Shown one piece after another: positions 5,723 through 50,746 of a stretch of 64,000 bases of DNA (the stretch's first letter is position 1; every line of letters starts with the position of its first letter). This DNA comes from Raja brachyura (Eukaryota), in the NCBI GenBank assembly GCA_963514005.1, contig OY740792.1, forward strand, positions 67,394,001-67,458,000. The letters are read 5' to 3'. A model generated the notes under the pieces. That model was given only the letters and a program-made list of their open reading frames with translations, did no database searches and was not told the origin of the DNA. The translations under genes were made by a program, and so were the position numbers.

Positions 5723-8125
5723 GTGAAAGATATGCAAAAAAGTATTGGTGATAAGGAAAGCAGGCATTGTAAGCTGTTGAAAGCAGGCCATTGTAAGCAT
5801 GTAACCCCTGCTCTTTCACACCCACATCACAGCCCCCATACCCCCCCACCCCCTGACCACCCTCCACCCCCCCACCACACAACGCTCCGTCCTCAGTCCA
5901 CTCACCTGCCTTCCTCTAGCCACAACCCCCATCCCTGCCGTGTGTTCACCATCCCCCCGGACCTCCCCCTCTCCGACACCGAAAGGTCGGTCCTCAGCAG
6001 AGGTCTTACCTTTGTCCCCCTCCGTCCCCACCTCAATGAGTTCCGTGCCCACCACGACTTGGAGCTTTTCTACCGTCGCCTCTGCCTCACAGCGTTTTTC
6101 CACGGGAACAAGTCCTCGCCCCCCACTGATGATCCCTTTTCCTGTCTCCCACGTACCCCCTCCTCGTGGACCCCCCCTCGTGGCCCTCCAGCTTTAGAAC
6201 TATTTATACAAAACTGCCGTCGGGACATCAACCGCCTCGACTTCTCCACTCCCCTGTCTCACTCCAATCTCTCCCCCTCCGAACGTACTGCCATCGACTC
6301 ACTCCGCAACAACCCAGACTGGGTTATCAAACCCGCCGACAAGGGAGGTGCCATGGTAGTCTGGCGCGTCGATCTCTACAAAGCAGAGGCCACGCGCCAA
6401 CTCTCGGACACCTCCTCCTACTTACCCCTGGACCATGACCCCACTGACGAGCACCAGGCCACCATCTCGAGCACCATAACTGACTTCATTAACTCCGGCT
6501 CCCTACCCCCCCGAGCCTCCAACCTCATCGTTTCCCAGCCCCGCACAGCCCGATTTTACCTTCTCCCCAAAATCCACAAACCCGACTGCCCCGGCAGACC
6601 CATTGTCTCTGCCTGTTCGTGCCCCACCGAACACATTTCCACATACCTTGACTCCATCCTATCCCCCTTTGTTAAATCCCTCCCCACCTATGTTCAAGAC
6701 ACCTCAGACACTCTCCGTCGGCTCCGCACATTCCGTTGTCCAGGCCCCCATCCTCTCATCTTCACCATGGACGTCCAGTCACTATACACCTGCATCCCCC
6801 ACCAGGATGGTCTCAAAGCCCTCCGGTACTTCCTCGACCAGAGGAGCAACCCATACCCATCCACTGACACCCTCCTCCGCCTAGCGGAGTTGGTCCTTAC
6901 CCTAAACAACTTCTCTTTTGACTCCTCCCATTTCCTCCAAACACAAGGCGTAGCTATGGGCACACGCATGGGCCCTAGCTACGCCTGCCTCTTTGTCGGG
7001 TACGTCGAACAATCTTTGTTCTCGACGTACCAGGGCCCCACCCCCGACCTTTACCTCCGTTACATTGACGACTGCTTTGGTGTCACCTCCTGCACCCATG
7101 CAGAACTGACTGACTTTATCCATTTCACCACCAACTTCCATCCGGCACTCAAATATACTTGGACCATTTCCGACATTTCCCTACCATTCCTTGACCTCAC
7201 CATCTCTATTGCAGGCGACACACTCCTGACTGACATCCACTACAAACCAACTGACTCCCACAGCTACCTGGACTACTCTTCCTCCCACCCTGCTTCCTGT
7301 AAGGACTCCATCCCCTATTCCCAATTCCTCCGACTACGCCGCATCTGCTCCCAGGATGACGTGTTCCACACCAGGTCATCGCAAATGTCCTCGTTCTTCA
7401 GAGAACGGGGTTTCCCCTCCCCCACTATCGATGAGGCTCGCACCAGGGTCTCCTCCATACCCCGCAACACTGCCCTCTCTCCCCATTCCCCCACTCACAA
7501 CAAGGGCCGAGTCCCCCTGGTCCTCACCTTTCACCCCACCAGCCAGTGCATACAACAGATAGTCCTCCGCCAGTTTCGCCACCTCCAACGTGACCCCTCC
7601 ACTCGCCACATCTTCCCATCTCCCCCCCTATCTGCTTTCCGCAAAGACCGCTCCCTCCGCAACTCCCTCGTCAATTCTTCCCTTCCCGCCTGCTCCACTC
7701 CTTCCCCGGGCACTTTCCCTTGCAACCGCAAGAGATGCTACACTTGTTCTTTCACCTCCCCCATCAACTCCTTTCAGGGACCCAAGCAGTCATTCCAAGT
7801 CCGACAGAGGTTCACCTGCACCTCCTCCAACCTCGTCTACTGCATCCGTTGCTCCAGATGCCAGCTAATCTACATCGGTGAGACCAAGCGGAGGCTAGGC
7901 GATCGTTTCGCCGAACACCTCCGCTCGGTCCGCAATAACCAACCCGACCTCCCGGTGGCTCAGCACTTCAACTCCCCCTCCCACTCCGTATCCGACCTCT
8001 CGGTCCTGGGCCTCCTCCATGGCCAGAGTGAACAACACCGCAAGTTTGAGGAACAACATCTCATATTCCGCTTGGGGAGTCTGCATCCTCTGGGCTTAAA
8101 CATTGAATTTTCTCAATTCTGTTAA
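5723..8125 (+). CDS. Penelope RT/GIY-YIG endonuclease ORF (open for 800 codons; the N-terminal part reads out of the inverted pLTR)
   Basis: IKPADKGG, DVQSLYT, GVAMGTRMGP, RYIDD; C-terminal NLVYCIRC...IYIGETKR...RFAEH GIY-YIG. Confidence 0.92.
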   Translation: MKDMQKSIGDKESRHCKLLKAGHCKHVTPALSHPHHSPHTPPPPDHPPPPHHTTLRPQSTHLPSSSHNPHPCRVFTIPPDLPLSDTERSVLSRGLTFVPLRPHLNEFRAHHDLELFYRRLCLTAFFHGNKSSPPTDDPFSCLPRTPSSWTPPRGPPALELFIQNCRRDINRLDFSTPLSHSNLSPSERTAIDSLRNNPDWVIKPADKGGAMVVWRVDLYKAEATRQLSDTSSYLPLDHDPTDEHQATISSTITDFINSGSLPPRASNLIVSQPRTARFYLLPKIHKPDCPGRPIVSACSCPTEHISTYLDSILSPFVKSLPTYVQDTSDTLRRLRTFRCPGPHPLIFTMDVQSLYTCIPHQDGLKALRYFLDQRSNPYPSTDTLLRLAELVLTLNNFSFDSSHFLQTQGVAMGTRMGPSYACLFVGYVEQSLFSTYQGPTPDLYLRYIDDCFGVTSCTHAELTDFIHFTTNFHPALKYTWTISDISLPFLDLTISIAGDTLLTDIHYKPTDSHSYLDYSSSHPASCKDSIPYSQFLRLRRICSQDDVFHTRSSQMSSFFRERGFPSPTIDEARTRVSSIPRNTALSPHSPTHNKGRVPLVLTFHPTSQCIQQIVLRQFRHLQRDPSTRHIFPSPPLSAFRKDRSLRNSLVNSSLPACSTPSPGTFPCNRKRCYTCSFTSPINSFQGPKQSFQVRQRFTCTSSNLVYCIRCSRCQLIYIGETKRRLGDRFAEHLRSVRNNQPDLPVAQHFNSPSHSVSDLSVLGLLHGQSEQHRKFEEQHLIFRLGSLHPLGLNIEFSQFC

Positions 8126-8605: not shown

Positions 8606-9830
8606 TTTTTTTAAAACAATTTTTTTTAGAAGTAAGTACAGGAATATGGCACCAAGGTGCCTAATATATATTGACATATTACATTTTATGTATAGCTTCT
8701 TATTTTTTTATTTTTTTAATAATGAGATAGAAAAAGAGAGAGTAGATAATAAAAGATCGAGAAACATGTGATATATAGTGTGTGAGAAAGAAAAAAGTGT
8801 AAAAAAAGAAAGTTGAGAATGAAAAACGGGAAAAGAAAGAAAAAAAGAGTAGAAAGTAAGAGATTAAGGAGATCATTCTCTATATTCTTGACCATCCCTC
8901 ACCCAATCCTGAAACAGTTAGCTTCTACGGTTTTGTTGCACCATATGATTCCAAAAAATTGTCAAATGGAGACCAACTTGTTAAAAATTGGTCTGATTTA
9001 TCTATTAGGAGGAATCTCATTTCCTCAAGATGTGCAGTGTCCAACATGTTTGAAATCCACATTATAAGCGTTGGTATGGTTGTATTTTTCCAAAAGTTAA
9101 ACATAAGTTGTTTTGCCGTTATTAACCCATAATTTAAAAATAAATTTTGAGATGAGTTCAGTTTATTCCCATCTGCCATTAATCCAAATATAATCTTTTC
9201 AGTATTAGCTTCCATTTTAATCTTAAATAATTTTGTAAATATTTCAAAAATATCACTCCAGAATTTATAAAGTGTTATGCAGGAGACAAAAAAGGGTGTT
9301 ATAGTTGCGTTTTGGGATAAGCATTTATCACAAATGGGGGAAGTATTTGGATAGAATTTATTCAGTCTAGTTTTTGAGTAAGATAATCTATGTAAAAGGT
9401 TAAATTGAATTAAATTATGTCTTACATTAATCGAACCTTTGTGTATATATATCAAATACTTTTCCCATGTTTCCTTCTCAATTTTAATCATTAATTCTTG
9501 TTCCCACTCTTCTCTAAGTGCCTCTGTCTATGGTAAATCTATATTTAAAATACTATTATATAAATATGATATTAATTTCTGTGAGTCAGCCTTAATGTTA
9601 AATGCTTCTTCCAATGGCTCTGAAGTTATGTTTGAATATCTTTGTATGTATTTCTTCATGAAGTCACAGATCTGAAGATATTTAAAATATTGGTTATTTT
9701 TCAGTTTAAATTTTAATTGTAATTGTTTAAATGATAACAGATTTCCCATTTCATACATATCACCGATCCTTTTAATTCCCATTCTTTCCCATTGATTATA
9801 TGTTTTATCGATATTCGATGTAGTATTGAA
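8606..9830 (-). mobile_element. L1-clade LINE 3' fragment (ORF2 C-terminus, 3' UTR, A-rich tail)
   Basis: ORFs 9528..9845 and 8925..9491 with QFNLLHR, CDKC zinc-knuckle remnant and FWKNTTIPT; T-runs on the + strand at about 8606-8627. Confidence 0.8.
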
Positions 9831-12634
9831 CCATACTTTCATCATACTTTGAGATCCAACATTTATTCTGTGTTATCATTGATCTGAACTGGATGATACA
9901 CCAGTGGCAAAGGAGATTTAGGTAATTATTACAGGATACTTTTACTTGATTACCATGTGACTAACATATGTCACTATCGTAGAGCAGCAACTTGAATTTG
10001 AGCATGTAGAATATGTATATTCACTCAATAGCCCCTAACCCATGGGGTGCATCTAGTGTATATATTTAGTTGATACCAACAATTGAAAGAATTTGTAACT
10101 CATGCAATCTCCAATACCTCCAAGTAGGTGATGGTATTTGGAACTTCTCATCTTAGAGTCCTAAGCATCAGTTTGTAATAACTAAATTCGACCAACCACA
10201 CTACTGTAGCGAGGTTCAAGTTCAATGAGTTATTGTCATGTTCAGCAATGTTGAATACTGTTACTTCATCATTGTGGCTGAGGTAGCTTCAGCTGACAAT
10301 AGCATAAGGTTGTTAACAATGGTCTAATTGCTACTTACATGATCTCAGTTCTTTGATTTGCTCAGCTGAAACACAGCTGCTATATTGCCAATTACTCTTG
10401 ATGAAAATAAAACTCAGTTTTGTAACAGATTGCCATAAGTCCAATCACTTGCCACAAGGCGGATTCAGGCCTAATAATAGTTAAAGGTAAATCCCAATGA
10501 CCAACAAACAGTTTATCCCATACCCCAAAGCTTTACTGTTATAGTACAGTTATATTGTCTTTGGTAACCTCTGTAATGGGATTTGCATAGCATGGATCTT
10601 TGACCCTTATGAATCTGTTGTAAGTCAGGAAAATAATTTTTCATATTCGGAAAGTTCATATGCCCGACACTCTCCATTTTTCATAATAACATTCCACTCC
10701 TGCCTTATTCCATGGGTGGTTTGCATGAGAACTTTTGCCCAATTTCCGAATTCTTTTTTTAAATAACCCTGGCCATAATCCAAACTTGCTAGGAATGCTC
10801 CGACTGTGCCTCAACCAAATATTTTTACCCTTTGTGTGTTGTACAAAACAAATGTAAATATTACAACTTGTGAACGGTGCACTACTCATATTTTGGAAGT
10901 GCTAGACCCATTCTGTTGTGTAGGATTGGTAAGGTGCATGGAATTTCTGAGCTATCATGCTGCCCCCAGCTCCAGTGAACCGCTTACTGCCGATGAGCGC
11001 CTGGGGTGCGTTCTGAAATTATGACTTTTGCCCGCCGTTGGCCTAATTGATTTGTCTGCCAGGCTTTCTTCCCCTGTTGAATAGGCCTACCTGAATAACA
11101 GATTCAGCGGCTGGCTCTCGCATCCCCCTGTTGGCGCTGTTCACTGCCGGCACATATGTGCTTAAGTATCTTCTATTGACTTCTTTAGAGCCTGGAGTCA
11201 GTTATATCTTGACCATTTGCTCTTCTCTCCTCAGAGAGGGTGATTCATAGGCAACCCTAAACAGGCGCTGCCGCAGGATACACATACTGATACAAACCCA
11301 TTGGCCTTAACCCAATAGAATACTCTGCTGGGATAGCAACTTTGTTGTCAGGAAAAAGGTACCTCTGACATGTGCCCTTCATCCCTTGGGGTGTGCCCCA
11401 CAGCCATACCCTGAGACTCAGTGTCTGCAGGATACTGACCCGTCTTGGTCTCTGCCTCCAAGAGGGAGACCTCTGTAGCACTGTATGCAACAGTTGCTGT
11501 ATTTGGGATAGTCGTTTTAAACGCACTATCCAGCCCCGGTGATAGGAATTCATCCCCCGACTCCGTGGGCCTTGGTATCCAGCCCCGGTGTAGAATCATC
11601 TCCCGACTCTGTGAGCATAGCAGATTATGTGTGAACTTGAGCAACCCTGTCCCAGGCGTTGCTAGCGCCGCCTTTCATAAAGGCTGGCACTTTTTGACAT
11701 GAAACAGCCCTGTACCAGGTGCTGCTAGCACGGCTCTCCCCAGGGCCGGTAATAACCATATAACAATTACAGCATGGAAACAGGCCCTCTCGGCCCTTCC
11801 AGTCCGTGCCAAACATTTATTTTCCCCTAGTCCCATCTACCTGCACTCAGACCATACCCCTCCATTCCCTTCCCGTCCATATACCTTACCTAATGTCACA
11901 AATGAAACAGCCCTGTATCAGGTGCTGCTGGCATGGCTCTCCCGTAGCCCAGCACTTTCATACATGAAGCAGCCCTGTCCCATAGGCCCACATTATTTCC
12001 TTGAAGCAGCCCTGTCAGGCGCTGCTGGCGCGGCTTGTCCCATGGGTCACTATCAACTCACTAATGTTCACTAATCAACATTTTTAGTGTACAGTTTTAC
12101 CTGTGAAGGATTACAACAATTCACTGCAGTTTTTGCTAAAAAACAAGGATTACATTGTCAGAGACATATAACAATAACTTTTTATGACTTTAACTTTGCC
12201 TTTAGCTTTTAACTTTAAGAAAAAGACTATAACATACATACATTTTATTATAAGGAGAACCCTTTGTAGCCCGACTCACCTGAGTCCAAATAGGGCTGAA
12301 TTAGTCCCATTTAATTCCTTGCCTGGGGACCAACGTCTGTGAGCCACTGACCACACTGTCAGTGACTCTATCGTTACTTCCTTGCCATTCCAACGGCATC
12401 CCCACAGGCTGGGAGCCGCTGACTACACTGCCAGCGACTCTGCTTGAATTTCTTGCCGTTTTTATGGCATCCCCGCTGGCTGGGAGCTGCTGACTGCACT
12501 GTTAGCGGCTCCTTATCTCACAACTTCTCTGTCCTGCCAGTCTGGTGCTTGCGCCAGTGCCGCTGACGTACTGGTGCGCATGCGGCCTGGCAGGTCTTCT
12601 TCACGGAATCACTCAAGTGACTCCGAAGTAAAAT
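9811..12634 (-). mobile_element. Degenerate/non-autonomous DIRS element, 5' half (copy A)
   Basis: Reverse complement begins attttacttcggagtcac..., like the left terminus at 37706; 9811-11130 is homologous (inverted) to 37081-37705, 43340-43802 and 45596-45780. Confidence 0.85.
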
Positions 12635-20950: not shown

Positions 20951-21812
20951 AACATAGTAACATCGAAAATAGGTGTAGGAGGAGGCCCTTTGGCCCTTTG
21001 AGCCAGCACCGCCATTCATTGTGATCATGGCTGATCGTCCCCAATCAATAATCCGTGTCTGCCTTCTCCCCATATCCCTTGATTCCACTATCCCCTGGAG
21101 CTCTATCTAACCCTCTGTTAAATCCATCCAGTGAATTGGCCTCCACTGCCCTCTGTGGCAGGGAATTCCACAAATTCACAACTCTCTGGGTGAAAAGGTT
21201 TTTTCTCACCTCAATCTTAAATTGCCTCCCCTTTATTCTAAATACCTTTGGAACTCTCAGAAGGCGATCAATGTCGAGTCACTAAGATCAATTGGTTTTG
21301 AGCTCAAGGAAAGTAATTGAATAGAGAAGTAAGTTTCGGAAGCCATGCCACATCCTCTAGATTCTGTTTTTTATATTCTGCATATGTTGTTTGAGAGAGG
21401 AGGGTGTGGTTGTATGATAAGTATCAGTTTGTGGTCTCGTTGAAGAGGGGCAATTTATTACTGTGGAATAAGTTACCGGTTCTTCATAAATTATTTAAAT
21501 CTTTTTTTTTAATATGTTTATTTTATTAGAAGCAATTGTACAAGAATAAAGCAATCGGCATGAGAGTTATACAATTTTCGTAGGCTTCATTTTTAACATT
21601 TTATAAATTGATACATAAATCAAAAATATTAAATTGATACATAATCGAGAAAAAGAAAAAGAAAAGAATGAAGAAAAAGAAGAAAGATGCAAAAATGTTA
21701 AATGTTGTGAATTGTTATCTTTGACCTTTAAGATAGCATATTCTGTTTCTTGGGATTGCTCAGTCCATCTCAATTCCTGTCTTTGCTGTCCCTTCTTGAA
21801 ATAAACAGGCGC

Positions 21813-21848
21813 CTATTGCAGATTTTCATAGTTTATGGAAACATTATC
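21813..21848 (-). CDS. Gene 1 exon 6 (terminal): DNVSINYENLQ* with ITIM; frame stays open after the TAG to TEYAIL
   Basis: Strong acceptor ttgttatttttgtgttgcag; phase 0 matches exon 5; ITIM INYENL at 21819-21836; TAG at 21813-21815. Confidence 0.72.
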   Translation of the reverse strand, partial: DNVSINYENLQ

Positions 21849-23851: not shown

Positions 23852-23919
23852 CTCATTTACTGAGTTCTTTCGTTTTCTCATTCTTTGAATATCAACAGTT
23901 GTGTCATGGACAAATGATT
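23852..23919 (-). CDS. Gene 1 exon 5, cytoplasmic (ESFVHDTTVDIQRMRKRKNSVNE)
   Basis: Acceptor catatttttatag, donor GAG|gtgagt, 68 nt, phase 1 to 0, open frame. Confidence 0.72.
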
Positions 23920-24525: not shown

Positions 24526-24627
24526 CTTTCCCTTTCTTCAATTTACTGTGGTAATGATACACAATCCAGACCCATATTGGTACTATTAGAATAAGACTCA
24601 GTCGAATGAAATAATACTTGCCGAATC
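24526..24627 (-). CDS. Gene 1 exon 4, transmembrane (RFGKYYFIRLSLILIVPIWVWIVYHYHSKLKKGK) with Arg near the N-terminal end of the TM
   Basis: Acceptor taattttcaag, donor AAG|gtaat, 102 nt, phase 1-1; hydrophobic run followed by a basic stop-transfer segment. Confidence 0.8.
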
Positions 24628-32677: not shown

Positions 32678-32989
32678 TTGGGGTGGGAGGGAAAAGTTCG
32701 CTCACCGAGCCCGTCCCCGTGAGGTGCTGAACCAGGCAGGTGGCGACCGTGCCCGCCTCTAGCCGAGGGTCGATGAGCCGCAGCCGGGAGCTCACGTTGA
32801 AGCTTCCATCCCCGTTCTCCCTCAGCGGCCCCGCTTCTGTTTCATAGGACAAGTGGCCCACGACAGCCCAGGACATGTTCAGCTCCCTCGGGAAGAATCC
32901 GGCGGCCACACAAGTCAGAGTCAGCTTCTGGTTCTGCGTCTCTGCGCCTTCTACCCCGGGATCCAGGCTCAGGGAGATGTCAGGCTTCG
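32678..32989 (-). CDS. Gene 1 exon 3, C1-set Ig domain (AKPDISLS...LTLTCVAAGFFPRELNMSW...NGDGSFNVSSRL...ATCLVQH...)
   Basis: C1 hallmarks CxxxGFxP...W, NxDGSF and CxVxH; acceptor tttttctactttacgcag, donor CAA|gtaagt; 312 nt, phase 1-1. Confidence 0.93.
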
Positions 32990-35743: not shown

Positions 35744-36073
35744 CTTGGATGTGCAATGTTGTTCCATTTCCTATACACTTTTTCCAGATATCATCCATCA
35801 GTACCACACAATGGTAAGTGTCTGCATCGTGCACAGTCGCTTTCCGAATGACCAGCGAGTCCTTGGACACGGACAGGCGGTCGCTTGTCTTCAGAAAACT
35901 CCCGAACTTGTTGTCCCAGAGATCCGGGTTGTCTTTCGTCCGAATCCAGTATCGCCTCATTGAAACTTTCTCCCCCTCTCCGGGTAGCAGGGAGCAGTTG
36001 AACCTCGCTGTCTGCCCTCGGAGAAGCGTCAGAGCAGCAGGAGACTGGATCACCCTCACACCGACAGCGGACC
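35744..36073 (-). CDS. Gene 1 exon 2, germline-joined VJ-type V-set domain (GSAVGVRVIQSP...FNC...YW...DADTYHC...CIGNGTTLHIQ)
   Basis: B-strand Cys, C-strand Trp, DxxxYxC and J-like GxGTxL in one exon; acceptor cactttccgtgccag, donor AAG|gtaatt; 330 nt, phase 1-1. Confidence 0.94.
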
Positions 36074-36763: not shown

Positions 36764-36812
36764 CTGGGAGAAAGAGGCAGAGCGTGCAGATGAATTTTGC
36801 AAACGATGACAT
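36764..36812 (-). CDS. Gene 1 exon 1, signal peptide (MSSFAKFICTLCLFLP-G)
   Basis: ccaaaATG start, hydrophobic core, 49 nt ending in phase 1 at CAG|gtaagt; splices in frame to the V exon. Confidence 0.88.
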
Positions 36813-37705: not shown

Positions 37706-40700
37706 ATTTTACTTCGGAGTCACGTGAGTGACTACGTGAAGAAGCCCCGCCTGGCGCTGGATCGGCATTACGTCGACGGTATCGGCAGAGGAAGAGCTGC
37801 AGAGCGCAGCTCCAACACAGCGGTAAGGAAACGGCCCGCAGGTAAGTAAAATTATTTTACTTCCAGGGCGTTTTCTAAAAACTCCGTAGGCTGGTGGGTA
37901 AACCAGGAGGAGTTAAAATAAAAATAAAAATGTTTTAAAAAATCGCAGGTAAAACGTGCGTCCCGGGGTGTAGAAAAGTTGGGACAGCAGATTATTGCGG
38001 AGCTGGTTCCGATACCGGTGGCCGTTGAAATACCCGTTAGTGAGCCTTTGGTTGCTCCACAAACAAAAACTTTGAAAACCCAGTGCCTAAAATGTAAAAG
38101 GAATCTTGAAAGGCCTGAGGTTCTGAAAGATCCTGAAAGGAAAGCCTTTGGCTAAGTATGGATCTAATGGAGAAAATACTCCAAACAATATCAACCAAGG
38201 GTCTAAGTACCCAGAATATTCCCAGGCAGCCCCTGAGGGGGTTCCATATCATGAATATGGTGCCAGTTTGAATTGGGAATTGAAACTCCAGTGCCTGGGA
38301 TTGGGCTGGAGGAAGTCTCCTTGAACAAGTTTCAGGAGTACCAGGGCTGTATGAGACTGACCCTGAAAGTGGTATTTGTGGTCAGAAGTACCCACCACAA
38401 TACAAATCCAGGTGTGTCTGATGGGGCACAAAGTTACTATACCTGGAGGAGGCGGTGAGGCCATGGAAGGAAACCTGGTGGCCAATGTTAATTATATGGT
38501 CTCTCACCTGCCTCAAAAAAGCTGTTATGATTGAGACAGCAGATTTGGATTAAAACACCTATTTATTGTACCTCAAAGAAGGTACATATGGTGAATCCGG
38601 CTTTTTTGGGCGCCAATGTCAGCAATAATGCGGGCGCAGGAATTACGATTCAAAGAATCCTCAAGCTAATTTTGGCATCACTGTCTTTTGGAAGACAAGC
38701 TGGAAGGTTGTGGAATGACCAAAGTTCAGAATAAACATATGTTGGGCTTATTCTGCAACTCATTTTGAGATAAATTATATAAAATGGAAGATTGCCATTC
38801 GGCCTCTTTTACATCCAAGATTTTCAGGGTTGTGCAGGGCAAGCAATGTTCAAGCTCTTGGTTATTTATTCAGAGGAAATCTGTCTAAAAAATTAAAGAA
38901 ATGGATGAAGAGGCAAAAAATGTTGGCCTTGTGAAACCCTTCAGTTTGGCCAGAAAGGTTGGTCATATGAGAAGGGGATTTGATTTTGGAGCTGGAACGA
39001 GCCGAGGCAGGAGTATGATAAGGAAGAATTACCAGCCAGCACAGCTGAATGTACACCCATTTATTGGGAAAAGAGATCATTTCGTCCAGTTGGAGAGGTA
39101 CAAAAACTTTATCCTATTAAAGAAGGATATTTGGATGAACCTCAGATTGGTGGTAGACTCCGAATGTTTATAATGAAAGGGAGGTATGGATCCATTGGGA
39201 CACAATAAGCCTAATCATTCTTTGATGTTTCAGTCTTGAAAGAATTCAAATTGACAAAAGAGGTTAAGAATTTGTGTGAGAAAGGAGTTATTGAGAAACA
39301 AAAAGGAGAGGATCCACAACAATTGTATCAAATATTTTCCCCAGACCGAAGAAAGATGGGGGTTGTAGAATCATTTTAGATCTCACACAATTGAATACAT
39401 TTGACTAGTATAAACATTTTAAAATGGACACATTCAACACTGCAATGCAGCTGGTATCAACAGGTTGTTATATGGCTACAATAGATTGAAGGATGCATAT
39501 TTTCGGTCCCAATTCACCATAGTTTTGCAGGTAATTAAAGTTTATGGATGGGACAGCTGTGGCAATACAAAGCTTTGCCTAATGGATTAAGCCAGCACTT
39601 GCACTGCTAAGGGCACAAAAACACATCGTTATGGCTGATCTAGATGACATTTTAATTGTCAATGCTAATCAGGAGTCAGCTGGAAAATCAGTCTCAGCAA
39701 CTACAAGTTTGTTTGAGAAGTTGGGTTCCTGATCCATCCAACAAATCTAAGTTACAGCCATCCCAAACCATTGAATATCTGGGGTTTGTGATTAACTCAG
39801 TTACCATGTTGGTAACTTTACCAATGGATAAGGTGTTGGATTTGACAAATGTGTGTCAGAACCTGATTAACAAACCTTATCCCTCCATCCGAGAGGTTGC
39901 CAAGGTTATTGGTAAATTGGTAGCAGCATTTCCAGCAGTAGAGTTTGGTCCTCTACATTACCAAAATCTTCAAAGGGCAAAAACTCAAGCGCTTATTCAG
40001 CAAGCAGGCCATTTTGATAGGCCAATGCAATTGCCTAAGGAAGCTTTATCAGAATTACATTGGTGGATTGAGAATGTTCCACAAGCTGCTAAGAACATTT
40101 TAGTTCATCAGCCAGTAGTGTTTTTGCAAACTGACGCAAGTTCTCCCGGATGGGGGGCTACGGATAATGAGACCAGCTGTGGAGGCAGATGGGCTGTCCA
40201 AGAGGATTTTTTGCTCCAAACATATGGTATTAAATATTTGGAGCTACTGGGAGCATTTTATGGATTAAAAGCTTATTGCTCTTCATTAAAAGATTTGCAT
40301 GTCCAAGTACAAATAGATAATACCACAGCTGTGGTATATATCAATCACATGGGTGGCAGATCAATATCATGTGATCATCTGGTAAACCAGATGTGGCAAT
40401 GGTGTATGGCAAAAAATATTTGGCTTTCAGCTATTTATCTCTCAAGGAGAGACAATGTTGTGGCAGACAAAAGATCACGAATATTTAAAGACAATACAGA
40501 ATGGATGTTAATCCACAAATTTTCAAAATATTGTCAGTCGGTATGGAGTACCAGACATTGATCTGTTTGCATCTAGATTGAATCACCAATTGCCCAAATA
40601 CGTGTCTTGGGAACACGATCCAGGGGCAGTAGCGGTGGATGCTTTCTCGCTACACTGGGGGAATACGTTCTTTTATGCTTTTCCCCCATTCTGTCTCATT

Positions 40701-43339
40701 GGGCAATGTCTCAAGAACATAGCGCAAGACACTGCCAAAGGCATTTTGGTGGTGCCAAATTGGCCCACGCAGTCATGGTTCCCATTGATGCTAAAATGAT
40801 TATTGAACCATGTATGACAATTCCCAGTTGCGACAATCTGTTGACACAACCAGTAACAAAAGAAATTCAAGGTTCAAGGTTCAAGGTTAGTTTATTTGTC
40901 ACATACACCAATTGGTGTAGTGAAATGCTTCTTGCCATGCAGCACATAAAATAAAGAATACAGACACAACAATAATAAAGAGATTTAAACATAAAAACAT
41001 CCCCCCACAATGGTTCACATTATGAGGGAAGGCACAATGTCCAGTCCCAAACCCGTGTCCACCCATAGTCAGGCCTATTGAGGCCTCCACAGTTGCCTTC
41101 ACGGAGGCCCGATGTCCCAGGCCGTTCTCGCCGGGTGGTGGTACTCTCTGCGGCTTGGTACACGCGGAACGGCCGCTTCCCGCTCGAGTCCGCGGCTTCC
41201 AGAGCCGACAAGGCCGCGCTGAATGGAGCTCACCTCCGCTGGCTCCCGGTGTTAAAGTTAAAGTTCAGTGCTGCCGCCCGCAGCTGGCCGCTCCACGGAC
41301 CCGCAGCTCCGCGATGTTTGGCTCGGGCGGATCCAGCTCACCGGAGCTCCAGCGCGGCGACCCAGGCAAGGCATCGCCCGCTCCGCTCCGCCCCGCGATG
41401 GCGCTCCAGCGCTCCGCCGCTGCCGAAGCCGAGGCCCTGGACGGTCTCCTCGGGAAACGCCGCTCCAGGCCCGCTGGTAGGCCGCGAGGATCGGGTCAGA
41501 GATGCAGCCCGGAGAAAAGCTGCCTCTCCAACCAGGTAGGGACCCTGAAAAGTAGTTTCCCCCTTTCCCCCCCCCCCCCCCCCCCCCACTCACCCCCCAC
41601 ATAAAAAAGAATAGGCTCCAAACAAAAACACTTAACACACTAAAAAAAAAGAAAAGAAGAAAAGACATACGGCTGCAGGCTGGGCAGCCATACCACACAG
41701 GACGGCGCCCCCCTAGGAAGCCCCCTAGGAATTATGACCATTGCATGATCATATGAATTTGTTAATCTGCAGGTTCTGACCAGACCGTTGCAAGAGTTTG
41801 AACTGTCGGACAGGACCATGGATATTATAGATGCAGCTTGGAGGAATAGCACTAAAAAACAATATATGTCGCATATAAGGAAATGGGAAGATTTGTACAC
41901 AGTCAAAGATATCTAATCATACTGCAAACATTTCAAATGTATTGGAGTTCCTTGCTGGGTTACACTTTGATGAGCATTTGAGTTATAGTGCCATTAATTG
42001 TTCTCGTAGTGCATTGTCATCCTATTTAGGACAAATTTCGGATCGGGATTCAGTTGGGTCTCACCCATTAGTATCCCGATTCATGAAAGGAATTTTCAAT
42101 AAAAATCCTCCCAAGCCCAGATATACAGAAATTTGGGATGTTAGCATTGTTCTCACTTTGCTTAAACAATGGACTCCAATTAGTTCAATGTCTTTGCAGA
42201 AATTAACATTCAAGGTGGTAATGTTAATGGCATTGGTATCAGCTCAAAGAGTACAAACTTTGCAATTGTTACGGTTGGATTGCATGCATGTGACTACAGA
42301 TAACATTGTGTTTTATGTTTATGACTTGATCAAACAAAGCAGACCAGGAAGAACTGGAATGAAGGTAATGTTTAAAGCATATCCTATTGATGAAACATTG
42401 TGTGTAGTTAAGCATTTAACTCAAATACATTGAGGTAACCAAAAATCTCAGAGGTTCTGAGAAAGCATTATTGATAACACACAAAAAGCCACATACAAAA
42501 GTTTCAGTTCAAACCATTTCTAGATGGTTAAAACAGGTTTTGGGTCTGTGATGTGTTTAACACTGATGTGTTTAAATCTCACTCCACTAGGGCGGCAGCT
42601 ACGTCCGTGGCGAAGGTACAGGACGTACCACTCGATCAAATTTTAGAGGCCGCAGGGTGGTCTAGAGAAGAGATTTTTTCAAAGTTCTACAATAAACCTG
42701 TTGTCACGGTGCCAGGATTTGGACACGCAGTACTGGGTTCTCTTTAAATGCTTGCTTTGTTTTATATTATCGATTTATATTATCGATTTATGTTACCATT
42801 GACATCATTTATCAATTTATTTTGTCATTTTCCCCTGCGATAGAGGGGTTATTATTAAAAAAGTTGTTCTTTTTATGATTAAAGGACTTATTACATAAAT
42901 TGTAACAATGTCTTAAAATACTATTTACTCACTACTGTTTTGACTAAACAGAGAGTCGTATGAAATGAATTTACGACATAAAAAACACAGAGCTTTAAAA
43001 TCTTCACGTAGTCACTCACGTGACTCCGAAGTAAAATAGTGAGATTAAACGAGAATTTACCTGTTCGAAGTTTGATCTTTATTTTATGAGGAGTTACGAT
43101 GAGGGATTACGTGCCCTCCACTCCCAACCCTCATAATGTAAATGATCATCTGGTAGTTCTAGTCTATTTTGAGCCTTACTATTTTACTTCGGCTATTGGT
43201 TCTGTGTTTTTCATGCCGCTGCTTTGAAGTATGCCGATCCAGCGCCAGGCAGGGCTTCTTCACGTAATCCCTCATCGTAACTCCTCATAAAATAAAGATC
43301 AAACTTCGAACAGGTAAGTTCTCGTTTAATCTCACTATT
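37706..43339 (+). mobile_element. Full-length but mutated DIRS1-like tyrosine-recombinase retrotransposon (RT/RNase H, adenine-methyltransferase-like domain, YR, ITRs, ICR)
   Basis: RNase H TDAS/LEL/DN in 39656..40561; DLFASRLN...YAFPPF...VPNWPTQSWF; YR HSTRAAATS at 42553..42747; ICR 43001-43113 is complementary to both ends; ATT at both junctions. Confidence 0.93.
40868..41737 (-). mobile_element. GC-rich non-autonomous retroelement with (TTGAACC)n tail, inserted in the DIRS
   Basis: Interrupts the DIRS coding sequence (..VTKEI | ccattgcatgatcat..); tandem ttcaagg tail; related 5' end near 17400. Confidence 0.6.
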
Positions 43340-43802: not shown

Positions 43803-45597
43803 GAACAAGGACATGGCAGACCAATTGAAGGAACAAGGACATGGCAGACCAATTGAATAACTACTTTGGTTCTGTCTTCACTAAGGAAGACATAAATAAT
43901 CTGCCGGAAATAGCAGTGGAACGGGGGTCAAATAAGATGGAGGAACTGAGTGAAATCCAGGTTAGCCGGGAGGTGGTGTTGGGTAAATTGAACGGATTGA
44001 AGGCCGATAAATCCCCAGGGCCAGATAGTCTGCATCCCAGAGTACTCAAGGAGGTAGCCACAGAAATAGTGGATGCATTAGTGATAATTTTTCAAAATTC
44101 CTTAGATTCTGGAGTAGTTCCTGAGGATTGGAGGGTAGCTAATGTAACCCCACTTTTTAAAAAAGGAGGGAGAGAGAAAGCGGGGAATTACAGACCAGTT
44201 AGTCTAACATCGGTAGTGGGGAAACTGCTGGAGTCAGTTATTAAAGATGGGATAGCAGCGCATTTGGAAAGTGGTGAAATCATTGGACAAAGTCAGCATG
44301 GATTTACGAAAGGTAAATCATGTCTGACAAATCTGATAGAATTTTTCGAGGATGTAACTAGTAGAGTGGATAAGGGAGAACCAGTGGATGTGTTATATCT
44401 AGACTTTCAGAAGGCTTTCGACAAGGTCCCGCATAAGAGATTAGCATACAAACTTAAAGCACACGGTATTGGGGGTTCAGTATTGATGTGGATAGAGAAC
44501 TGGCTAGCAGACAGGAGGCAAAGGGTAGGAGTAAACGGGTCCTTTTCAGAATGGCAGGCAGTGACTAGTGGGGTGCCGCAAGGCTCAGTGCTGGGACCCC
44601 AGCTATTTACAATATATATTAATGATTTGGACGAGGGAATTCAATGCAACATCTCCAAATTTGCAGATGATACCAAGCTGGGGGGTATAGTTAGGTGTGA
44701 GGAGGATGCTTGGAGGCTGCAGGGTGATTTGGATAGGCTGAGTGAATGGGCAGATGCATGGCAGATGCAGTACAATGTGGATAAATGTGAGGTTATCCAC
44801 TTTGGTGGCAAAAACATGAGGGTAGACTATTATCTGAATGGTGGCAGATTAGGTAAGGGGGAGATGCAACGAGACCTGGGTGTCATGGTACACCAGTCAT
44901 TGAAAGTAGGCATGCAGGTGCAGCAGGCAGTGAAGAAAGCAAATGGTATGTTAGCATTCATAGCGAAAGGATTTGAGTATAGGAGCAGGGAGGTTCTACT
45001 GCAGTTGTACAGGGTTTTGGTGAGGCCACACCTGGAGTACTGCGTACAGTTTTGGTCTCCAAATCTGAGGAAAGACATCCTTGCCATAGAGGGGGTACAG
45101 AGAAGATTCACCAGACTGATTCCTGGGATGTCAGGACTTTCATATGAGGAAAGATTGGATAGACTCGGTTTGTACTCGATGGAATTTAGAAGATTGAGGG
45201 GGGATCTTATAGAAACCTACAAAATTCTTAAGGGGTTGGACAAGCTAGATGCTGGAAGATTGTTCCCGATGTTGGGGGAGTCCAGAACAAGGGGTCACAG
45301 TCTAAGGATAAGGGGGAATTCCTTTAGGACCGAAATGAGGAAAACATTCTTTACACAGAGAGTGGTGAGTCTCTGGAATTCTCTGCCACAGAAGGTAGTT
45401 GAGGCCAGTTCATTGGCTATATTTAAGAGGGCGTTAGATGTGGCACTTGTGGCTAAAGGGATCAGGGGGTATGGAGAGAAGGCAGGTACGGGATACTGAG
45501 TTGGATGATCAGCCATGATCACATTGAATGGCGGTGCAGGCTCGAAGGGCCGAATGGCCTACTCCTGCACCTATTTTCTATGTTTCTATGTTTCTAT
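43803..45597 (+). mobile_element. Young 5'-truncated CR1 with an uninterrupted 552-aa RT frame
   Basis: ORF 43841..45499; tail (tttctatg)n; tandemly duplicated ~28-bp 5' end; the empty site tattctacatgctcaaattc is present in DIRS copy A. Confidence 0.95.
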
Positions 45598-48989: not shown

Positions 48990-50746
48990 CATTACAGCCT
49001 TATTTTTAAATTGATTAAATTCATTTTTCTATCATCAATCTACACACAATATCCTAGAATGAAGAAGCAAAACCAGGTGTTTAGAAATTTATGCAAAGTA
49101 ATTGAAAATAAATAACTGAAATATCACATTTACGTAAGTATTCATACCCTTTACTGTGACACTCAAAATTAAGGTTAGGTTCATCCTGTTTCCATTGATT
49201 ATCCTTGAGATGTTTCTACAACTAGATTGGACTCCACCATCATTAAATTGATTGGACATGGTTTGGAAAGGCACACACCTGTCTATATAAGGTCCCACAG
49301 TTGACAGTGTATGTCAGAGCAAAAACCAAGCCATGAAGACGAAGGAATTGTCCATAGATCTCCAAGACAGGATTGTGTCGAGACACAGATCTGGGGAAGG
49401 GTTGTGAATTTATGGAATTCCCTGCTACAGAGGGCAGTGGAGGCCAAATCACTGGATGTATTTAAGAGAGTTAGATAGAGCTCTAGGGGCTAGTGGAGTC
49501 AAGGGATATGGGGAGAAAGCAGGCATGGGTTATTGATAGGGGATGATCAGCCATGATCACAATGAATGGCGGTGCTAGCTCGAAGCGCCGAACGGCCTCC
49601 TCCTGCACCTATTTTCTATGTTTCTAAAACAATTTCTGCAGCATTGCAGGTCCCGAAGAGCACAGTGGCCCCCGTCATTCTTAAATGAAAGAACATTGGA
49701 ACTACCAGGACTCTATGGAGCTGGACGCCCGGGGAGAAGGGCCTCGGTCATGGAGGTGACCAACTACCCAATGGTCTCTCTGACAGAGCTCCAGAGTTCC
49801 TCTGTGGAGGTGGGAGAACGTTCCAGAAGGACAACTATATCTGCAGCACTCCACCAATCAGGCCTTTAAGGTAGAGTGGCCAGACGGATGCCACTCCTCA
49901 GTGAAAGGCATATGACAGCCCTCTTGGAGTTTGCCAAAAGGCATGAGAAACAAGATTCTCTGGTCTGATGAAGCCGAGATTGAACTCTTTGGCCTGAATG
50001 CCAAGCGTCACGTCTGGAGGAAACCAGGCACTGCTCATCATATGAGCAATACCATACCTACGGTGAAGCATGGTGGTGGCAGCATCATGCTGTGGGGATG
50101 TTTTTCAGCAGCAGGAACTGGGAGACTAGTCAGGATCGAGGGAAAGATGAACGGAGCAAAGTACAGAGAGATCCTTGATGAAAACCTGCTCCAGAGCGTT
50201 CTGGATCTCAGACTGGGGCGAAGGTTCACCTTCCAACAGGACAACGACCCTAAACACACAGCCAAGACAACGCAGGAGTGGCTTTGTGACAAGTCTGTGA
50301 ATGTCCTTGAGTGGCCCAGCCAGAGCCCGGACTTGAACCCGATCGAACATCTCTGGAGGGACCTGAAAATAGCTCAGCATCGACGCTCCCCATCCAACCT
50401 GACAGAGCTTGAGAGGATCCGCAGAGAAGAATGGGAGAAATTACCTAAATGCAGGTGTGCCAAACTTGTAGCGTCATACCCAAGAAGACCTGAGGCTGTA
50501 ATCGTTGCCAAAGGTGCCTCAAGAAAGTACTTACTGAAGGGTCTGAATACTTATGTAAATGTGATATTTTAGTTATTTCTTTTTAATTACTTTGCAAAAA
50601 TTTCCAACACCTGTTTCCGCTTGTTTATTATGGGGTATTTTGTGCAGATTGATTATTTAAAAAAACATAATCCATTTAAAAATAAGGCTGTAATGTAACA
50701 AAATGTGGAAAAAGTGTAGCAGTCTGAATACTTTCTGAATGCACTG
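48990..50746 (+). mobile_element. Tc1 (DD34E) DNA transposon, defective; CR1 3' fragment inserted at about 49400-49626
   Basis: WSDE, QQDND and SPDLNPIE with 34 residues between D and E; long inverted repeats (about 48990-49150 and 50540-50746); right end ...cactg|TA; left outer end missing. Confidence 0.93.

Follow-up and report, generated by a model that had tools for sequence, protein, structure and literature searches.

Here, we describe a predicted receptor gene of leader-V-C1-transmembrane-tail layout on the minus strand of a 64,000-nucleotide stretch of the Raja brachyura genome (GenBank assembly GCA_963514005.1, contig OY740792.1, positions 67,394,001 to 67,458,000 of the forward strand). 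This whole stretch is called the window, and positions are counted within it. The gene was modelled from splice-site scans and homology as six exons, which are presumably spliced and expressed. Its parts, and the remains of its tail beyond the stop codon (the dead tail), are as follows:

36764..36812, minus strand: coding part of exon 1, ATG and signal peptide with phase-1 donor, similar to relatives' leaders
35744..36073, minus strand: exon 2, single-exon V domain with J-like GxGT end (Pfam V-set, E 1.4e-7; 65% identity to Pristis P0002)
32678..32989, minus strand: exon 3, C1-set domain (Pfam C1-set, E 9.6e-13; 63% identity to Pristis)
24526..24627, minus strand: exon 4, encoding the transmembrane segment and of the type seen in long-tailed (inhibitory) forms, with a weak AAG acceptor (homology and splice scoring)
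24602..24604, minus strand: transmembrane arginine, CGA codon, leucine in 12/12 relatives (alignment of long forms)
23852..23919, minus strand: exon 5, membrane-proximal cytoplasmic exon of 68 bp (splice signals and homology)
21813..21848, minus strand: coding part of exon 6, 11 codons plus TAG (reading frame and alignment)
21819..21836, minus strand: INYENL with a lineage-specific tyrosine (TAT, 21830-21828), N, D or S in 12/12 relatives
21813..21815, minus strand: TAG where the ancestral first ITIM had its tyrosine, conserved in 12/12 relatives
21714..21812, minus strand: dead tail, part 1, 33 codons with a 3-codon deletion and TEYAIL at 21746-21729 (homology)
21495..21712, minus strand: AT-rich, LINE-like insertion of ~215 bp with a poly(A) run at its end, absent from relatives' tails (ends uncertain by a few bases)
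21387..21494, minus strand: dead tail, part 2, including VTYSTV (21476-21459), the third motif (tblastn, Hypanus E 7e-6, Scyliorhinus E 3e-4)

Elsewhere, the window holds a neighbouring gene and several mobile elements:

62290-61952 and 60893-60630, minus strand: B7-family gene, V and C exons (called VTCN1-like in skates and rays; 228-238 aa; homology)
5723-8125, plus strand: Penelope-like frame of 800 codons, reverse transcriptase (RT) and GIY-YIG (weak Pfam matches)
8925-9872, minus strand: end of the LINE at 8.4-9.9 kb
38889-42433, 43829-45499 and 49916-50572, plus strand: further mobile-element frames

In its V exon, the VTCN1-like gene shares 81-86% identity with three named skate proteins, against 73% with sawfish and 61% with electric ray. 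The pairing of a VTCN1-like gene with a V-C1 receptor looks conserved in sawfish, and the B7-type neighbour is a possible lead to the receptor's ligand. These elements include an RT frame of 556 codons, of which several broken copies lie elsewhere, and a DDE transposase; some frames are presumably DIRS-like, with no firm Pfam match.

The spliced frame comprises 298 codons (298 aa) without internal stops, all junctions being GT-AG and in phase, and the 861 bp of exons 1 to 5 contain no frame break. The V domain of exon 2 was modelled with a mean pLDDT of 87.6. Two features of the C1 exon (32989-32678) are absent from relatives: an insertion of 4 residues close to its start, and its proline-rich end. 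Scored with a matrix of approximate vertebrate frequencies, the last-exon acceptor (21848) reached 7.0 (99.5th percentile among 4024 minus-strand AG sites), and the transmembrane-exon acceptor (24627) was weak (87th percentile of AG sites). The last exon joins the 68-bp exon 5 in phase 0; this junction, the strong acceptor and homology suggest that the two are spliced together, as a first-pass annotation of the window had supposed. Because the transmembrane exon can be skipped in frame and isoforms lacking it are annotated in two sharks (P0047, P0049), a secreted form of the receptor is possible.

Twenty-six named family proteins were retrieved, all of them NCBI gene models of sharks and rays. 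Alignment columns were counted over one long-tailed protein per species in 12 species, which are related and hence do not amount to 12 independent events; seven isoforms or partial duplicates (P0002, P0004, P0047-P0050, P0058), five short-tailed forms (P0041, P0051, P0052, P0059, P0061) and two truncated models (P0053, P0054) were omitted. Long-tailed V-C1 receptors of sharks and rays were the best four of 38 matches to the V and C1 exons (126/190 residues identical to Pristis), and the gene groups inside the ray clade in a tree of 18 ectodomains. These receptors, named SIRP-beta-1-like, SHPS-1-like or Ig-kappa-like by NCBI (XP_051870356, XP_038658211 and XP_067848433, for example), resemble the skate gene in exon plan, in V and C1 identity (50-66%) and in the long-type transmembrane and tail exons, which are present here too. 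In each of the 12 long forms, the first ITIM is retained and the transmembrane segment is uncharged; a translated ITIM and ITSM-like pair with an uncharged transmembrane segment, the condition of the long-tailed lineage, was not found in the skate gene. By alignment, the gene would descend from this lineage and no longer be an inhibitory-type member of it, because TAG stands on the ITIM tyrosine and an arginine lies in the transmembrane segment. Protein searches retrieved no skate member of the family, though three skate proteomes were covered (a word-index search, one search showing a single protein per 50% cluster and one scoring 8000 candidates); with the V exon, the word-index search returned only an unrelated mite titin-like protein and missed the 65%-identical sawfish protein too. 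These searches suggest, at most, that the family is absent from skate proteomes.

Structure searches found the V exon to resemble VNAR and TCR-alpha V domains, with the nearest family not clear-cut: the fold is closer to these than to SIRP, yet the searches gave no clear division between SIRP and V domains of the TCR/VNAR type. SIRP-gamma ranked 48th (Z 11.3 versus 13.4 at the top), and in two family-profile searches SIRP-alpha (2wng) was fourth and third among PDB matches (E 1.6e-30 and 2.5e-32), with Ig and UrIg2 level with it. Mammalian SIRP-alpha and SIRP-beta likewise combine a J-like V with a C1 ectodomain and have long and short forms with common ectodomains; the SIRP-alpha tail has four tyrosine motifs, and SIRP-beta has a transmembrane lysine and couples to DAP12. 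The SIRP-like names given by NCBI appear fair as to architecture, and the gene may be called SIRP-like by domain plan. It has one C1 domain, whereas its stingray and manta relatives have two. NKp30 has no C1 domain. Among PDB entries, the C1 exon matched UrIg2 best (E 1.3e-16). According to the accessible parts of PMC10751288 and PMC12227049, UrIg, UrIg2 and NKp30 are non-rearranging VJ genes of cartilaginous fish with V and J in a single exon, as here, and UrIg has a C1 domain, as the skate gene does. UrIg2 has nine C1 domains, and the term ITIM is absent from the accessible text of the same two papers; the skate gene, in contrast, has one C1 domain and a tail that ancestrally held several ITIMs. 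As identities for the gene, UrIg2, NKp30 and the CD28/PD-1 family were set aside on domain plan. No description of the shark and ray V-C1 family or of the skate gene was found in the openly accessible literature; much shark immunology is in subscription journals, and gene tables in supplements could name it.

On the minus strand, the frame from 21848 reads DNVS-INYENL-Q-TAG(21815-21813)-APVYF...TEYAIL-KVK, and the tyrosines of INYENL and TEYAIL are 30 codons apart, just as the first-pass annotation had read them. Named shark and ray proteins align with the segment through their tails, at 42-55% identity and with E as low as 1e-8 against the window; by this alignment, the resemblance is not due to chance. 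In the long-tailed relatives, the TAG column is tyrosine in 12/12, invariably within L-[QH]-Y-A-x-V, and the column of TEYAIL is likewise tyrosine in 12/12. The relatives, then, do not all stop at TAG, and the earlier proposal, in which the last exon of an ITIM-type receptor with an ancestral TEYAIL motif acquired a premature stop, is borne out. The same proposal had the stop spare the first ITIM and remove only the second; instead, TAG replaces the tyrosine of the first ITIM, and every ancestral motif (first ITIM, TEYAIL and the third motif) has been removed from the frame. INYENL, earlier taken for the original ITIM, has tyrosine at its column in 0/12 relatives and is, on this count, a lineage-specific gain. 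The spacing of 30 residues, which had been likened to that of known tandem motifs, is a coincidence: first-ITIM and second tyrosines are 28 residues apart in 12/12 relatives, and TAG and the second tyrosine are 25 codons apart here after the 3-codon deletion. TEYAIL, with leucine at Y+3, does not satisfy the strict ITSM (T-x-Y-x-x-V/I; V or I at Y+3 in the accessible text of PMC11599192) and is called ITSM-like here. The position of TAG on the conserved ITIM tyrosine, the insertion, the third motif and the transmembrane arginine had all been overlooked.

Up to the insertion, the tail offers 50 routes to a stop, half of them at or before the TAG codon and thus also removing the ITIM. A random nonsense change would strike the TAG codon with a chance of ~0.014, and both frame breaks would fall within the last exon with a chance of ~0.07, both values having been computed after the fact. 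TAG is known from a single assembly sequence and differs from TAC or TAT by one base, which would suit a miscalled base or a rare allele; the common allele would then have a tyrosine, two motifs and an extension derived from the insertion. The possibility of a base error, raised earlier, stands to that extent; a lone error would not restore a normal tail, though. With tyrosine in place of TAG, or on any reading past it, the frame would run through 33 ancestral residues and 48 derived from the insertion before a stop; an apolar stretch would be among them (mean hydropathy 1.78 over 19 residues). The insertion, the deletion and the transmembrane arginine are independent of the TAG base and all indicate a remodelled signalling end, and together with the low chance of striking this codon they make an error or rare allele an improbable account.

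Even less credit is given to a bypass of the stop, by an acceptor at 21812 or by readthrough, that would yield an isoform bearing TEYAIL. Skipping 36 nt would preserve the frame, and alternative last exons are annotated in relatives (P0002, P0004). Against this, the TAG acceptor put forward in the first-pass annotation scores -4.6 compared with 7.0 for 21848 (60th percentile of AG sites; 6/14 pyrimidines), no stable structure was found 3' of the stop (z +0.96; 172/200 shuffles fold as well), and the product would run on into the 48 residues of the insertion. We regard such an isoform as very improbable.

YENL fits the Grb2-type YxN motif, and INYENL also fits the loose ITIM consensus, I-x-Y-x-x-L. 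Across the relatives' tails, gain of a tyrosine would create YxN at 100/1258 positions (~8%), an ITIM-like motif at 61/1258 (~5%) and a motif fitting both at 11/1258 (~1%); the new motif may have arisen through chance. INYENL could thus have replaced the lost ITIM as a single C-terminal ITIM (for SHP-1 or SHIP), with or without an adaptor, leaving a receptor that is still inhibitory, or dual. The motif is spared, with the stop two codons after it, positions that fit both consensus motifs are as scarce as just stated, and rat Ly49 include receptors with a transmembrane arginine and an ITIM, as the accessible part of PMC3210942 reports. This outcome is nevertheless unlikely: the motif is found in none of the 12 relatives, YENL is a classical Grb2 site in LAT (PMC2194190, in its accessible part), a lone motif one residue from the C terminus stands in place of a tandem pair, and the transmembrane arginine points the opposite way, toward the activating signalling that we favour.

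That arginine is residue 9 of its exon, and in the 12 long-tailed relatives charged residues occupy 0/228 cells of the transmembrane core. Counted within the best hydrophobic window of 19 residues, it is at position 4; in longer windows, it is at position 7-8. The accessible text of PMC1440944 places the arginine of FcR-gamma-coupled receptors in the N-terminal transmembrane segment (position 3 in Fc-alpha-RI), which is where the skate arginine lies. Because only ~15 apolar residues follow below it, the arginine could instead hinder membrane insertion.

Arginine-based signalling seems to exist already in the V-C1 family, because short-tailed paralogues (P0041, P0051, P0052, P0059, P0061), from sawfish, two stingray or manta genera and horn shark, have a transmembrane arginine in 4/5 cases (histidine in one) at exon residue 9-10. 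These forms use a different transmembrane exon, whereas the skate gene has the long-type exon with an arginine of its own. Compared within species, short- and long-form ectodomains share 189/190 (Pristis), 190/195 (Heterodontus) and 163/192 residues, near-identical in two of the three pairs. We interpret the short-tailed paralogues as an old paired-receptor system with homogenised ectodomains; homogenisation of this kind is described for paired receptors in the accessible part of PMC3210942, and the shark and ray family has the same pattern. A profile of the five short forms, run over six frames, found no short-type transmembrane exon in the window (best E 0.46), and the 64-kb window holds neither a second copy of any exon nor an inhibitory partner gene.

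Homology of the dead tail to relatives is interrupted just after KVKDN by the insertion, where the frame is broken. The insertion is similar in sequence to the 3' terminus of the LINE that lies at 8.4-9.9 kb (0/300 shuffles in each of three gap settings; 7/500 under stricter scoring), so that the LINE identity depends on the scoring; the LINE itself matches zf-RVT at E 0.002, below the Pfam cut-off, and 'L1-like' would be our own label. Two alternative sources did less well, one at 54.0 kb (1-16 of 300 shuffles) and one at 42.3 kb (11-23 of 300). A short A-rich word is shared by the flanks, and two readings of a target-site duplication are possible. Two overlapping AATAAA signals at 21527 and 21522 (21527-21510, minus strand), ~290 nt beyond the stop, could end the transcript and leave out the distal dead tail. 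The ancestral tail resumes at ~21494, where it matches the end of the Hypanus and Scyliorhinus tails, and the tyrosine of VTYSTV is kept in 6/12 relatives, exclusively sharks.

Dead-tail identity to shark tails is 58% and 53%; living ray tails reach 57% and 49% over the same columns, the latter figure being lowered by the unrelated end of Narcine. On a fixed species tree, with few columns and hence rough lengths, the gene's branch was 0.39 for the dead tail (15% of its tree, 67 columns), 0.43 for the ectodomain (16%) and 0.58 for the transmembrane segment and proximal tail (21%, 66 columns), the fastest part. Divergence in the dead tail does not exceed that of living tails or the ectodomain, so the tail was probably lost well after skates separated from other rays, in line with the recent nonsense change proposed earlier. 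The length of the dead-tail branch leaves little neutral time for both hits to have accumulated by decay.

These values bear on whether the gene is an early pseudogene, in which selection lapsed and the stop, the insertion, the 3-codon deletion, the transmembrane arginine and the new tyrosine are unselected damage. The ectodomain lies on a long branch and keeps 39/45 otherwise invariant columns (87%), six having changed, which is below 16 of 17 relatives (92-100%; Narcine, 83%). The transmembrane segment and proximal tail evolve fastest, and several lesions fall inside 400 bp. That no skate relative was retrieved while the neighbouring VTCN1-like gene matches three skates fits a gene that is decayed, lost or unannotated in skates. 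Set against this are exons 1 to 5 without a frame break and with all splice sites intact, a V domain whose core is kept and models well, a dead tail without excess decay, and a Narcine gene that is equally divergent yet annotated as coding; moreover, the lesions are exactly those that switch signalling. Decay is the main alternative, though a rather doubtful one.

We favour the reading, at roughly even odds (a probability of about 0.5), that an inhibitory receptor turned activating by way of a transmembrane arginine and a stop in the proximal ITIM, the route taken by KIR2DS. This switch reading rests on one assembly. Three point changes are proposed: leucine to arginine in the transmembrane segment, ITIM tyrosine to stop, and gain of the Grb2-type YENL. 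The stop lies in the last exon, and the mRNA would escape nonsense-mediated decay by the last-exon rule, which is drawn from human data (PMC10534055, accessible part). The short protein would reach the cell surface, its arginine would pair with an ITAM adaptor of the FcR-gamma or CD3-zeta type, SHP-1/2 would no longer be recruited through tandem motifs, and phosphorylated YENL could add docking of Grb2 or Gads. Most probably, the stop came first and the insertion entered sequence that was already 3' untranslated, where it may supply a poly(A) site. More tentatively, the skate may have re-invented an activating receptor by these point changes, without drawing on the old activating exon of the family's short-tailed forms; a LINE end would later have capped the dead tail, and the product would combine an ITAM adaptor with a co-stimulatory motif of its own.

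Activating KIR arose through a positive transmembrane charge and a stop within the proximal ITIM, according to the accessible text of PMC2213150, and both changes are present in the skate gene. As described there, short-tailed KIR2DS/3DS and activating Ly49 descend from inhibitory ancestors; they resemble the skate gene in these two features, set on an inhibitory signalling domain, and in the few base changes involved. The skate gene differs from them in its unrelated V-C1 ectodomain, in an arginine near the outer leaflet (FcR-gamma type) where KIR have a central lysine (DAP12), in the new tyrosine motif and later insertion, in its occurrence in a cartilaginous fish, and in the absence of an inhibitory twin from the window. 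The evolutionary route is known; the instance, in cartilaginous fish, is new. How activating receptors repeatedly arise from inhibitory ones is known from mammalian KIR and Ly49, whose activating forms do not persist for long (PMC2213150, same text). If the reading is correct, the same two-step switch occurred in the oldest group with adaptive immunity, with a fossil tail still legible, and its order and timing would be datable from sister skates; a gene that is merely decaying would be an ordinary truncation.

The comparison also reveals a shark and ray family of paired V-C1 receptors, with the arginine-bearing short form in a shark and in rays. Shark tails hold up to four tyrosine motifs. 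In rays, the distal tail has eroded independently: Narcine (P0005) diverges right after the second motif, Pristis (P0040) stops early, and in stingrays and mantas (P0042, P0043, P0055) tyrosine motifs three and four have been lost and the C1 exon is duplicated.
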